This document shows positions 61,254 to 63,318 of a DNA stretch of 64,000 nt, in pieces. The translations under genes and the position numbers were made by a program. Under the pieces are notes generated by a model. The model did no database searches. It was given only the letters and a program-made list of their open reading frames with translations, and was not told the DNA's origin. This DNA is from Escherichia coli. Its GTDB lineage: Bacteria; Pseudomonadota; Gammaproteobacteria; Enterobacterales; Enterobacteriaceae. Location: the NCBI RefSeq assembly GCF_041248615.1, contig NZ_CP158426.1; one strand, given 5' to 3'. Within the stretch, counting starts at the first letter, position 1, and the number at the start of each line of letters is the position of its first letter.

Positions 61254-62801
61254 ATGCTTAAAAGACGTGATGCTTTTTTAAAGAAAAGCGCGCTGGCAGT
61301 GAGTGTGGCCCTGCTGCTCTCGGCTCAGGCTCAGGCTCAGGATATTTTAATCGGACCGATTCAACCTGGCGAAGATAATAGCTTTCTTGTTGGAGAATCA
61401 GTAGCTGGCCGTTCGATTGATAAAGTAAGAAATGTATGGTTGATTGGTGATGATTCTTTTTTATTAGACTCAAACAGGACTGTGCTTTTGGGGAATAATT
61501 CTGGTGTTGTGAACTCTCCGGGAAGTGTGAGTCTGGGGCATGATGCACTTATTGCTGACTCTGAATGGGGGACTGTTGCAGGAAAAGAAGCGTCACTTAT
61601 TTCTTCTCGTCAGAGCTCGGCAATTGGTGCGTTTTCATCTGTGCAGGATTCTACCAGTTCTGTAGCTCTGGGCCATGGCTCACAGGTGTCGGGAGAAAAT
61701 AACGTGGTATCTGTTGGTGCCGGGCCTGAGGGATATGGAGAGAGTGTCAAAGGAGCACCGGAAACCCGCCGGATTATAAATGTGTCTGATGGTATCAATA
61801 ACACAGATGCAGCGACGGTAGGGCAACTGAATGAACGATTTGATGATGCACAGGTCTTTTTGTTGCAGACGAATGAAAGAATTGACGAGACAGATAAACG
61901 TCTTTCAACAGTTCATGCTGAACTCAGCAGGGATATTATTGCAGGCACATCGGCAGCGGTGACGTATACAGATGTAACAGCGCTTGCACTTCAGGATGAG
62001 ATAAAGGATGGGACGAACAAAGTACGTGATGAGTTGAAATCACAGGGAGACAGTCTGCGTGGTGAGATAGGCGGTGTATACAGAGATGCCCGTGCTCATA
62101 CTGACAGTCAGGTCACAGCAGTACGTGATGAACTGAAGGCAGAGGGAGACAGTCTGCGCGGTGAGATAGGCGGTGTATACAGAGATGCCCGTGCTCATAC
62201 TGACAGTCAGGTTACAGCAGTACGTGATGAACTCAGCAGGGATATTATTGCAGGCACATCGGCAGCGGTGGCGTATACGGATGCATCTTCTCTTGCTCTT
62301 CAGGATGAAATAAAAGAAAAAGCGGATGAAACAGTTCAGGTTTCCCGGGCTTATACAGATAAAAGTGTACGGGATGCCCGTAAAGAAGCGAAAAGCCAGG
62401 CAGAACATCTCAGCGATGTGCTTGTGAAGAACAGGGCGCAGACGGATGCAGCAATAGCCTCAAATACAGCAGCGATAAGGAATAACAGTCATCGTCTGGA
62501 TTTGACGGAAGCCTGGCAGAAGATGGCGACAGAGAGAATGAATAATATGCAGGAGCAGATTAAAGAGAACCGGAAGGAGTTAAGGGAGAGTGCAGCCCAG
62601 AGCGCGGCACTGGCAGGTCTTTTCCAGCCATACAGTGTTGGAAAATTTAACGCGACAGCAGCCGTTGGTGGTTACCGTGATGAGCAGGCCATTGCGGTGG
62701 GCGTGGGCTACCGTTTCACAGAGAATGTGGCAGGAAAAGTTGCAGTTGCTGCAGGTGGGTCATCCGCATCGTGGAATGCTGGTGTGAATTTTGAGTTCTG
62801 A
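61254..62801 (+). CDS. YadA/Eib-like trimeric autotransporter adhesin
   Basis: ORF 61200..62801; start at [28 protein letters not shown] (signal peptide); coiled-coil stalk repeats; C-terminal membrane anchor ...[29 protein letters not shown]...WNAGVNFEF. Confidence 0.8.
62045..62242 (+). repeat. Intragenic tandem duplication (~99 bp x 2) in the adhesin stalk
   Basis: Two near-identical units encoding [30 protein letters not shown], differing by a few synonymous positions. Confidence 0.8.
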
Positions 62802-62862
62802 CAGGTCAGGATTTAGATATCTGTCCCGGGGGGAGTCCCCCGGGATATAATGAGGTACAGAG

Positions 62863-63318
62863 ATGCTGGATATAATCCTGGCGACGAGAGATATTTATTT
62901 TGAAAAAGCCCTGCGAGAGGTATTTGGAACCGTAAGCAGTCGAATCAGATATATAGAAGATGCCATATCAGACAGAAGAAGGGTGCAGTCAGGCAGGTCA
63001 TTCAGATATTATTTTGTATTCTGTGATGATGAGTATACAGATATTGTTCGTATTCTTTTTACCGGAGAGGCCTGCTGTATTCTGAATAAGTCGATGCTGA
63101 ATCTGAGAGCGGCCGGAGGTGTGTTGACGCTGGAAGAGCGCAGAGCGGTACTGAACCGGTATTACAGAGGTTTAAGTATTGCGGAGATTACAGAAGAGAC
63201 GGGGCAGAATGACAAGACGGTATACGGTCATCTTCGTCGTGCACTGCAGCGGTCTGGATTCCGGAAGGGGCGTTTTATAAAGGGGAGAGAAGCGGCGGGG
63301 GATTCAGGTGTTGAATAA
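62863..63318 (+). CDS. Hypothetical protein with C-terminal LuxR/sigma-70 region-4-like HTH
   Basis: 151-aa ORF directly downstream of the adhesin gene; C-terminal LTLEERRAVLNRYYRGLSIAEITEETGQNDKTVYGHLRRAL. Confidence 0.5.
   Translation: MLDIILATRDIYFEKALREVFGTVSSRIRYIEDAISDRRRVQSGRSFRYYFVFCDDEYTDIVRILFTGEACCILNKSMLNLRAAGGVLTLEERRAVLNRYYRGLSIAEITEETGQNDKTVYGHLRRALQRSGFRKGRFIKGREAAGDSGVE

Follow-up and report, generated by a model that had tools for sequence, protein, structure and literature searches.

A trimeric autotransporter adhesin gene with a length-variable stalk, and its linked helix-turn-helix gene, in a genomic island of Escherichia coli

The locus described here lies near the end of a 64,000-nt stretch of Escherichia coli DNA (contig NZ_CP158426.1 of assembly GCF_041248615.1; hereafter the window). 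It consists of a gene for a 515-aa adhesin and, downstream on the same strand, a gene for a 151-aa protein with a helix-turn-helix (HTH) domain. Coordinates are window positions, and all features listed in Table 1 are on the plus strand; the chromosome of E. coli NRZ14408 (NZ_LT599825.1) matches the window with 100% identity, a window position being the position in that record minus 2,339,671. In RefSeq the stretch 61254-62801 is annotated as 'YadA-like family protein' (WP_192459706.1), and 62863-63318 as 'sigma factor-like helix-turn-helix DNA-binding protein' (WP_000884155.1). The adhesin open reading frame (ORF) starts with an ATG preceded by AGGAG.

Table 1. Features of the adhesin locus and of its upstream region in the window
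Feature	Position	Strand	Basis
orf-191/DUF4376-type remnant (prophage tail-fibre-like gene): last 27 codons and in-frame stop, with downstream spacer	60419..60656	+	blastn, tblastn
Putative terminator-like hairpin followed by T-run, 5' of adhesin gene	60801..60832	+	pattern scan, consensus match
Trimeric autotransporter adhesin (TAA) gene, 515 aa	61254..62801	+	
Signal peptide, ~aa 1-29; cleavage site putative	61254..61340	+	read from sequence
Passenger head (YadA-like beta-roll repeats, ~aa 30-172) and neck (aa 173-194)	61341..61835	+	
Coiled-coil stalk, ~aa 195-456	61836..62621	+	periodicity, EibD alignment
Outer 106-nt direct repeat, copy 1 (LALQDEIK unit)	61903..62008	+	repeat search
99-bp tandem repeat, 2.15 copies, 33-aa unit VRDELK(SQ/AE)...	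62021..62233	+	Tandem Repeats Finder, repeat search
Outer 106-nt direct repeat, copy 2, 86% to copy 1	62212..62317	+	repeat search
YadA-type beta-barrel membrane anchor, aa 457-515	62622..62798	+	Pfam, YadA 2lme, EibD identity
G+C-rich hairpin GTCCCGGGGGGAGTCCCCCGGGAT inside 61-nt spacer, without T-run after it	62823..62846	+	RNA fold
151-aa REC-like and HTH protein, ORF-156/TosE family	62863..63318	+	homology, model

Judged by its domains, the 515-aa protein is a type Vc trimeric autotransporter adhesin (TAA) in which signal peptide, head, neck, stalk and anchor follow one another in this order. The N-terminus, with its basic n-region, hydrophobic core and AxA motifs, reads as a Sec signal peptide. 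At the opposite end, the YadA_anchor family of Pfam (PF03895) aligns with aa 457-515 over the full length of the model (3.5e-16), and the neck at aa 173-194 matches the YadA_stalk/neck family (PF05662; 2.9e-5); the Pfam match to YadA_head is weak. The best match among solved structures is the anchor of YadA (2lme, 2e-17), and head/neck fragments of SadA (2yo0 and 2yo3) match aa 124-203. The NCBIfam YadA model is hit with an E-value of 2.8e-20 and a score of 72.7 bits, far below its equivalog cut-off of 750 bits. These matches, the Sec-type N-terminus and the periodicity of the stalk (see below) bear out the original prediction, made from the letters alone, of a YadA-type trimeric autotransporter with a signal peptide, a coiled-coil stalk and a C-terminal domain of the YadA anchor family. 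The head is the part that varies most between alleles, its DNA being replaced in other alleles.

The region of signal-peptide cleavage contains a microsatellite: a hexanucleotide repeat, (GGCTCA)x3.3, at 61322-61341 (period 6 in Tandem Repeats Finder) encodes AQAQAQ. Homologs have from 2.5 to 5 such AQ units, and this difference in number accounts for length series of 515/517/519 aa and 480/482/484 aa. Since the repeat remains in frame, it does not act as an on/off phase switch; changes in its length may move the cleavage site.

The middle portion of the stalk is made of repeated DNA. Tandem Repeats Finder reports an array of period 99 at 62021-62233, with 2.2 copies, 93% matches and zero indels, and a second repeat search delimits copies at 62021-62119 and 62120-62218, again with 93% agreement. 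Seven of the 99 bases differ between the two copies, five of them within the first 23 bases; two of the changes replace an amino acid (KSQ versus KAE) and five are synonymous. An older 106-nt direct repeat (61903-62008 and 62212-62317; 86%) brackets the array, so that the stalk reads A-B-B-A'. The 15 bases that follow the second unit, AGTACGTGATGAACT, restart the 99-bp repeat and at the same time open the second copy of the 106-nt repeat. As the start of this copy overlaps the partial third 99-bp unit, A and B units have a VRDEL boundary in common, which would offer homology for unequal exchange. The repeat is real and lies far beyond chance.

The number of units varies among homologs. Lengths of close homologs fall at 482, 515 and 548 aa, and those of proteins with a second head type at 480, 513 and 546 aa, thus in 33-aa steps. 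Among 84 full-length cluster representatives, two have no unit, 23 have one, 36 have two, 21 have three and two have four; these counts are indicative only, the representatives being near-duplicates of each other from redundant database clusters. Counted locus by locus, full units amount to 0 in strain SMS-3-5, 3 in IMT5155 and 5.6 (taken as 6) in a prophage of strain ECCNB12-2. Every array variant seen is in frame and made of whole 33-aa steps. Units of the KSQ and KAE types occur singly, together and in multiples, each type conserved across many alleles, and the KSQ+KAE arrangement of the window is the commonest architecture (25 of the 84 representatives). The same 515-aa protein, unchanged, has records on 14 contigs, and the 2.3-kb locus is covered in full by five complete genomes at 99.0% identity or above. 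The duplication is therefore not an assembly artefact, an explanation that had been kept in view when it was first noticed and that these records rule out. The array is a genuine dynamic polymorphism, in which the two-copy state of the window has the standing of an established allele and is not a duplication that has only just arisen. Hence, the initial description of a near-perfect and recent 99-bp tandem duplication is right about the duplication and the change in copy number; with 7 mismatches in 99 bases 'near-perfect' was an overstatement, and recency does not fit an allele that is the commonest and present in many genomes.

The hydrophobic period of aa 220-375 peaks at 3.68 residues, with almost no power at 3.5, which indicates a hendecad (11/3) rather than a heptad coiled coil. 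This segment contains five (Y/H)TD motifs, the first residues of which are aa 238, 282, 315, 341 and 367. They resemble the YxD motif of TAA stalks that are not heptad-based; work by Alvarez et al. in 2010 reportedly described, in the stalk of YadA, a non-heptad segment with YxD-type motifs. Because 33 residues equal three hendecads, or nine helical turns, gain or loss of a unit keeps the register of the core.

In comparisons with Eib and Saa, the anchor of the protein was found to resemble that of Eib. The last 75 aa are 73% identical to EibD, the pairwise alignment with EibD spanning 418 aa at 31% identity (E 5e-36). Against the proteins of the GenBank phage records, identity is 57-62% to EibA and EibE over aa 398-490 only, and 37.5% to EibC and EibD over aa 301-490. 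The Eib proteins (EibA/C/D/E; Sandt & Hill 2000; AF151091, AF151674-6; about 400-510 aa) are likewise of type Vc, have a nearly equal anchor and share with the window protein a membrane-proximal coiled coil, at the C-terminal end of the stalk, with NTxxIxxNS-type motifs. They differ from it in signal peptide, head and most of the stalk, which are unrelated or generically similar only, and the four compared Eib proteins are devoid of the 33-aa tandem array. One could nonetheless envisage that the adhesin is a genuine new Eib type, binding IgG Fc and/or IgA non-immunologically through its stalk: the similarity of anchor and last stalk part to EibA and EibE, a cassette layout and prophage association that match those of Eib (see below) and stalk YTD motifs like the one in EibD 329-344 would all fit, as would several near-identical database entries named 'immunoglobulin-binding protein', except that such names are unverified similarity labels. 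However, the EibD crystal fragment comprising residues 160-418 (2xqh) was unmatched even at E <= 10, 2xzr scored only 0.19, and the Eib saddle sequence (VGV.SDGKLTRAEGA..TI.VNDGLVAL) is absent from the adhesin sequence. Furthermore, identity is 20% across the stretch in register with EibD 384-418, which belongs to the left-handed coiled coil that the Eib proteins share along with the saddle and was reportedly identified as the IgG-Fc-binding site by Leo et al. 2011. For these reasons IgG binding is not predicted, and a true Eib-type binder seems unlikely to us. The Eib resemblance contained in the original prediction thus extends to the anchor, the membrane-proximal stalk and the layout of the cassette, and stops short of the parts of the immunoglobulin binders just named (the 2xqh fragment, the saddle and the 384-418 equivalent).

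Other known adhesins are more distant. YadA of Yersinia has the same head-neck-stalk-anchor lollipop and its anchor is the best match among solved structures, but overall identity is about 23% and the NCBIfam score is the low one given above. The size variation of Saa, the STEC (Shiga toxin-producing E. coli) autoagglutinating adhesin encoded by pO113, is said to have been ascribed by Paton et al. in 2001 to the number of 37-aa stalk repeats. Saa is a TAA of similar size, the alleles of which differ in size between strains (PMC7247748); unlike the adhesin of the window, it is plasmid-borne and has another repeat unit, and the two align with 24.9% identity over 72% of the query (E ~1e-8). Reviews recognize four characterised groups of E. 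coli TAAs, namely Eib, Saa, UpaG and EhaG (PMC7247748). The adhesin is none of these and represents a fifth, uncharacterised lineage. A literature search found no paper on this adhesin. The name eYadA, given to a TAA of avian pathogenic E. coli (APEC) TW-XM (PMC12955052), was considered and rejected: that protein has 338 aa, is encoded at another locus (cueR-ybbJ) and shows 23% identity over 160 aa (E 0.006), and the 140-aa gene downstream from it is unrelated to the HTH family described below.

The organization of the locus parallels that of the Eib loci. The four Eib GenBank records (AF151091, AF151674, AF151675 and AF151676) have the order orf-191, stem-loop, eib, stem-loop, orf-156, followed by orf-60 in three of the four; in the window, the adhesin gene, a G+C-rich hairpin and a gene for about 150 aa with REC-like and HTH parts succeed one another in the same order. 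The stem_loop annotated between orf-191 and eib in these four records is at the position that matches the 60801-60832 hairpin. No RNA family was matched in an Rfam scan of 59800-64000 at E <= 0.1. A sister copy of the cassette, in the ECCNB12-2 prophage (NZ_CP033635.1; locus L008), is 99.6% identical to window 62373-63537. It stands at the tail-fibre end of a lambdoid prophage, as Eib cassettes do, after gpJ, a collagen-like tail fibre gene and a 191-aa DUF4376 gene, the product of which is 59.7% identical to ORF-191D of phage P-EibD and matches tail-fibre PHROGs. Remains of such a gene are present in the window: 60423-60656 is 90.6% identical to L008 5905-6132 (blastn), and aa 165-191 of the L008 protein are found at 60419-60499, with 89% identity and an in-frame stop (tblastn). 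The window thus has an Eib-type anchor in a cassette context made of an orf-191 remnant upstream and a distant ORF-156 homolog downstream, and PHROG matches also point to phage families. Unlike the Eib loci, it is without an ORF-60 homolog and lies in a genomic island, not a prophage.

In NRZ14408, IMT5155, SMS-3-5 and the island copy of ECCNB12-2, the cassette is surrounded by debris of the insertion sequences (IS) IS1, IS256 and ISL3, and in three of these four aerobactin genes adjoin it. The island location amid IS debris and the orf-191 remnant lead to the view that the window copy is a cassette of accessory prophage genes, left behind in a genomic island. Two other provenances were considered and discarded. 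The tkt1 pathogenicity island (PMC3349570), which came into question for the transketolase remnant upstream, is a different island (metE-ysgA) with no TAA described in it. As to a plasmid origin, a single plasmid gave a 15% match (query 1-665), within a gene that bears the label 'Tat pathway signal sequence protein', and a plasmid copy of full length was not found. In the L008 copy, the TAA start chosen by RefSeq (locus position 6798, giving 400 aa without signal peptide) looks wrong: the full ORF, at 6384-8000, codes for 538 aa, begins with a signal peptide of its own, MKFIMAKNVLAMAVTSALLCCSVGVMA, carries 5.6 of the 33-aa units and lacks a YadA-like head in its N-terminal domain.

The protein encoded downstream has its HTH at aa 87-130, the best Pfam match being Sigma70_r4_2 (4e-7). 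A word-indexed protein search with this protein gave near-identical sequences only (at least 96%), and an exhaustive profile search of 1.84 billion protein representatives gave only 43 proteins, mostly fragments, with P0139 at 5e-33, P0144 at 6e-26 and GerE-type proteins at the weak end of the list. Full-length intermediates examined were P0134, P0136, P0139 and P0144; in pairwise alignments with the window protein, P0139 (2e-12) and P0144 (5e-9) are colinear over the full length. ORF-156 of EibA, C, D and E can likewise be aligned colinearly from end to end, at 24-26% identity, the conserved elements being M..ILATR..Y.E..L, D55, F.G, LT..E, YR and KTV; in addition, there is a weak match to phrog_6585, the ORF-156 family. 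We refer to these proteins as the ORF-156/TosE family, a grouping derived in this analysis and not a curated family; with members of it, the window protein gives pairwise E-values from 2e-4 to 2e-12. Positions conserved in the family (T8, D55, F66, G68, L88, E92 and V120 in window numbering) are present in the window protein.

P0144 (WP_001024300.1) connects the family to the tos system of uropathogenic E. coli (UPEC). Its gene is 3' of an RTX adhesin gene in strain Nissle 1917, within a cluster that encodes a PapB-family regulator, TolC, an ABC exporter, HlyD, a repeat protein and two HTH proteins in succession. As this order equals the published one, tosRCBDAEF (PMC5956150, PMC10392849), P0144 occupies the tosE position. 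The Nissle gene at the tosF position has a Pfam GerE match and a weak but colinear alignment with the family. In tos, as in the window, a full-length colinear member of the family is encoded on a mobile island, directly 3' of the gene for a non-fimbrial adhesin; tos differs in that the partner is a type I-secreted RTX protein and not a TAA, that identity is 22%, and that it comprises two such regulators plus an upstream PapB-type regulator, against one regulator in the window. TosE and TosF, and only these two, are reported to suppress motility (PMC5956150, citing Engstrom et al. 2014; PMC10392849). For TosE, the only relative studied experimentally, the reported effect is suppression of motility rather than control of its adhesin (PMC5956150). 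The original suggestion that the 151-aa protein could be a dedicated regulator keeps the rank of a hypothesis.

The placement of the family gene directly 3' of a secreted adhesin-type gene, on the same strand, recurs throughout the loci compared: the partner is a TAA in the window, in L006-L009, in the four Eib loci and in L014, an RTX adhesin in L013/L017 and an RTX-repeat protein in L010-L012. The P0136 gene is directly 3' of an Eib-like TAA. In L010/L011 (a contig of GCA_902838015.1; 2523-3678), P0139, of 155 aa, comes directly after a 198-aa HemolysinCabind (RTX-repeat) protein and two larger repeat proteins, and upstream of a TonB-dependent receptor; the RTX-repeat protein is a third kind of partner for this regulator family.

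An AlphaFold model, obtained with an 11-sequence alignment (mean pLDDT 73), has four beta-alpha repeats and then three helices. The best Foldseek matches in the PDB are full-length FixJ, RcsB, StyR and VpsT, with probabilities from 0.69 to 1.0, and the modelled protein resembles a shortened FixJ/RcsB-type regulator. In receiver domains the phospho-acceptor Asp comes after strand 3. At the corresponding place, right behind predicted strand 3, the family alignment shows an invariant Asp, D55; the acidic pair near the N-terminus is lacking (ILATRD stands where a DD-type motif would be). With response regulators of the NarL/FixJ/LuxR type (FixJ, RcsB, VpsT), the window protein has in common the predicted succession of an alpha/beta receiver-like domain and an HTH; it differs from them in being about 50 residues shorter, in having four instead of five predicted strands, in the missing acidic pair and in having no kinase gene adjacent to its own. 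With nearest relatives and predicted fold both of the LuxR/FixJ type, the LuxR-type HTH first assigned to this 151-aa protein was a reasonable call. Many database names ('sigma-70 family RNA polymerase sigma factor') would instead make it an alternative sigma factor, and the Sigma70_r4_2 match, weak NCBIfam matches to ECF sigma factors at aa 80-130 and sigma region-4 domains in the Foldseek list can be taken to this effect. However, region 4 is all that is matched, and with 16-21 bits the NCBIfam scores fall far short of the cut-offs (42.9-222 bits). For the N-terminal 80 residues an alpha/beta, receiver-like fold is predicted, not sigma region 2, the full-length structural matches are to regulators of the FixJ/RcsB type, and the relatives include the GerE-positive neighbour TosF and a GerE-type tandem-HTH protein. 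A sigma factor is thus highly improbable.

The two genes travel together. Of 5,426 complete E. coli genomes, 183 (~3%) carry the HTH gene, always with at least 99% identity and in up to 8 copies per genome, and many of the matches listed are chicken or APEC isolates. A probe made of the adhesin 3' end, the spacer and the 5' half of the HTH gene detected the same 183 genomes and was intact in 163 of them; some of the exceptions at the junction have IS5 between the two genes. Where inspected, a TAA gene was directly upstream from the HTH gene (five of five loci). RNA folding of 62795-62870 yields -30.6 kcal/mol (z -2.66). Alignment of the intergenic regions and the stem_loop annotations show that the Eib loci have a canonical terminator, hairpin plus T-run, at the place of the window hairpin; as the latter has no T-run, read-through into the HTH gene would be favoured. 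Right after the hairpin, at 62847-62852, GATATAAT holds a perfect TATAAT, 10 nt before the HTH start and overlapping a GAGG Shine-Dalgarno. This box, which the promoter scan did not report, may be either the promoter of a near-leaderless transcript or a coincidence.

Altogether, these data make it probable that the adhesin gene and the linked regulator gene form a cassette which came from a prophage, is divergently related to the Eib cassette and became stranded between IS remnants in an aerobactin-bearing island. In such a cassette, the Sec signal peptide would direct the adhesin to the periplasm, where three C-terminal anchors would join in an outer-membrane barrel. The passenger would be displayed, as family resemblance suggests, in the shape of a lollipop: the coiled-coil stalk would bear a neck and head like those of YadA, and its middle would be a hendecad coiled coil assembled from related 33- and 37-aa units. 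Unequal recombination or slippage would add or remove whole units through their common boundaries. By analogy with Eib, Saa and YadA, the likeliest function would be adhesion, autoaggregation or serum resistance, and variation in reach and in heads could adjust the fit to hosts or surfaces, or generate antigenic diversity. The 151-aa protein would most likely be a transcription regulator inherited together with the adhesin and possibly expressed by read-through; if TosE and TosF are a guide, it might couple carriage of the adhesin to repression of traits such as motility.

Several observations weigh against parts of this scheme. The Pfam scan of the 151-aa protein gave neither Response_reg nor GerE. 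With 19-26% identity and a 15-aa deletion, this protein is the most divergent member of its family, and the equation of P0144 with TosE is based on gene order, not on a published accession. The HTH model is of moderate confidence, and the Foldseek matches are weak (E ~1e-3) with low TM-scores (0.3-0.39), which we attribute to the placement of the domains. As for the stalk, we infer only, from 33 residues at ~0.15 nm each, that a unit changes its length by ~5 nm, and the same applies to stalk handedness. Expression is also in question: despite the missing T-run, the intergenic hairpin could block read-through, a simple scan of the plus strand revealed no good sigma-70 promoter match upstream of either gene, and with IS debris and a truncated orf-191 around it the island copy could be silent or poorly expressed. 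Carried further, this would turn the cassette into a decaying, unexpressed remnant, and the repeat variation into neutral slippage without function. The flanks, consisting of IS1, a transposase fragment, IS256, ISL3 and truncated transketolase and orf-191 genes, would suit such a state, as would the failure of the scan to find a convincing promoter, and an analysis of Brucellaceae TAAs speaks in its title of non-adaptive evolution (PMC7688925). Yet both ORFs are intact and 99-100% conserved in many genomes within the same island context (IMT5155, SMS-3-5, ECCNB12-2), the signal peptide, Shine-Dalgarno and anchor are all intact, and the array variants are, as said, all in frame and built of whole 33-aa units. 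Decay thus appears quite unlikely, and the prophage-derived adhesin-regulator cassette remains our preferred interpretation.

A more far-reaching version of this interpretation can be formulated, which we put forward tentatively and hold to be rather unlikely. ORF-156, the 151-aa protein and TosE would form one narrow family of very small regulators of the receiver-like/LuxR type, members of which would have been acquired again and again on the 3' side of unrelated non-fimbrial adhesins (type Vc TAAs and type I RTX adhesins) on prophages and islands. Made by read-through past a weak hairpin whenever the adhesin gene is transcribed, such a regulator might serve as a portable 'stick, don't swim' switch that shuts down motility or other surface structures, and the 33-aa array might serve as a register-neutral ruler that sets the reach of the head past O-antigen or capsule.

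The new point made here is a modest one, namely the family link between ORF-156 of the Eib loci, the 151-aa protein and TosE; stalk size polymorphism has a precedent in Saa. The link offers a testable hypothesis for a gene that has stood unexplained beside eib since 2000, and may bear on how expression of Eib-type proteins is controlled. Mosaic heads and a stalk of variable length matter for typing and for any vaccine use. The database names are misleading for both genes, 'immunoglobulin-binding protein' for the adhesin and 'sigma-70 family sigma factor' for the regulator.

Some minor features of the locus and its surroundings deserve mention. About 110 bp 3' of the HTH gene, a small ORF (63431-63525) encodes a very hydrophobic 31-aa peptide, MKITKAAFIFALSVWSVAVICLLLFVLVVLG, at the place where three of the four Eib loci have ORF-60, which likewise ends in a hydrophobic stretch; tblastn at E <= 10 revealed no similarity between the peptide, or the region 3' of the HTH gene, and ORF-60 of the Eib loci. 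In other copies, the DNA 3' of the HTH gene is conserved up to ~63537-63600. With 38% identity, aa 401-490 of the TAA (the membrane-proximal coiled coil and the beginning of the anchor) are matched by proteins of Salmonella phages SP154, UTK0002 and FSL SP-076 that bear the annotations tail fibre, tail protein or 'agglutinating adhesin', and PHROG 'tail' families also match the C-terminal part of the TAA; a TAA-like C-terminus in proteins annotated as virion components is odd. Farther upstream in the window, after ynjB, the core chromosome yields to a CP4-57-like island module (~43600-59300), with a CbtA/YeeU toxin-antitoxin pair, antirestriction, JAB/RadC-like and DUF932 genes and a YeeP-like GTPase gene; beyond these come an IS3, a gene of the inovirus Gp2 family, a small gene with an HTH, and a ProQ/FinO gene with a frameshift. 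The junction near ynjB has no annotated tRNA gene. Between topB and gdhA, in what is otherwise core chromosome, IS1397 (IS3 family) and IS1414 (IS256 family) lie back to back at 33129-35721.

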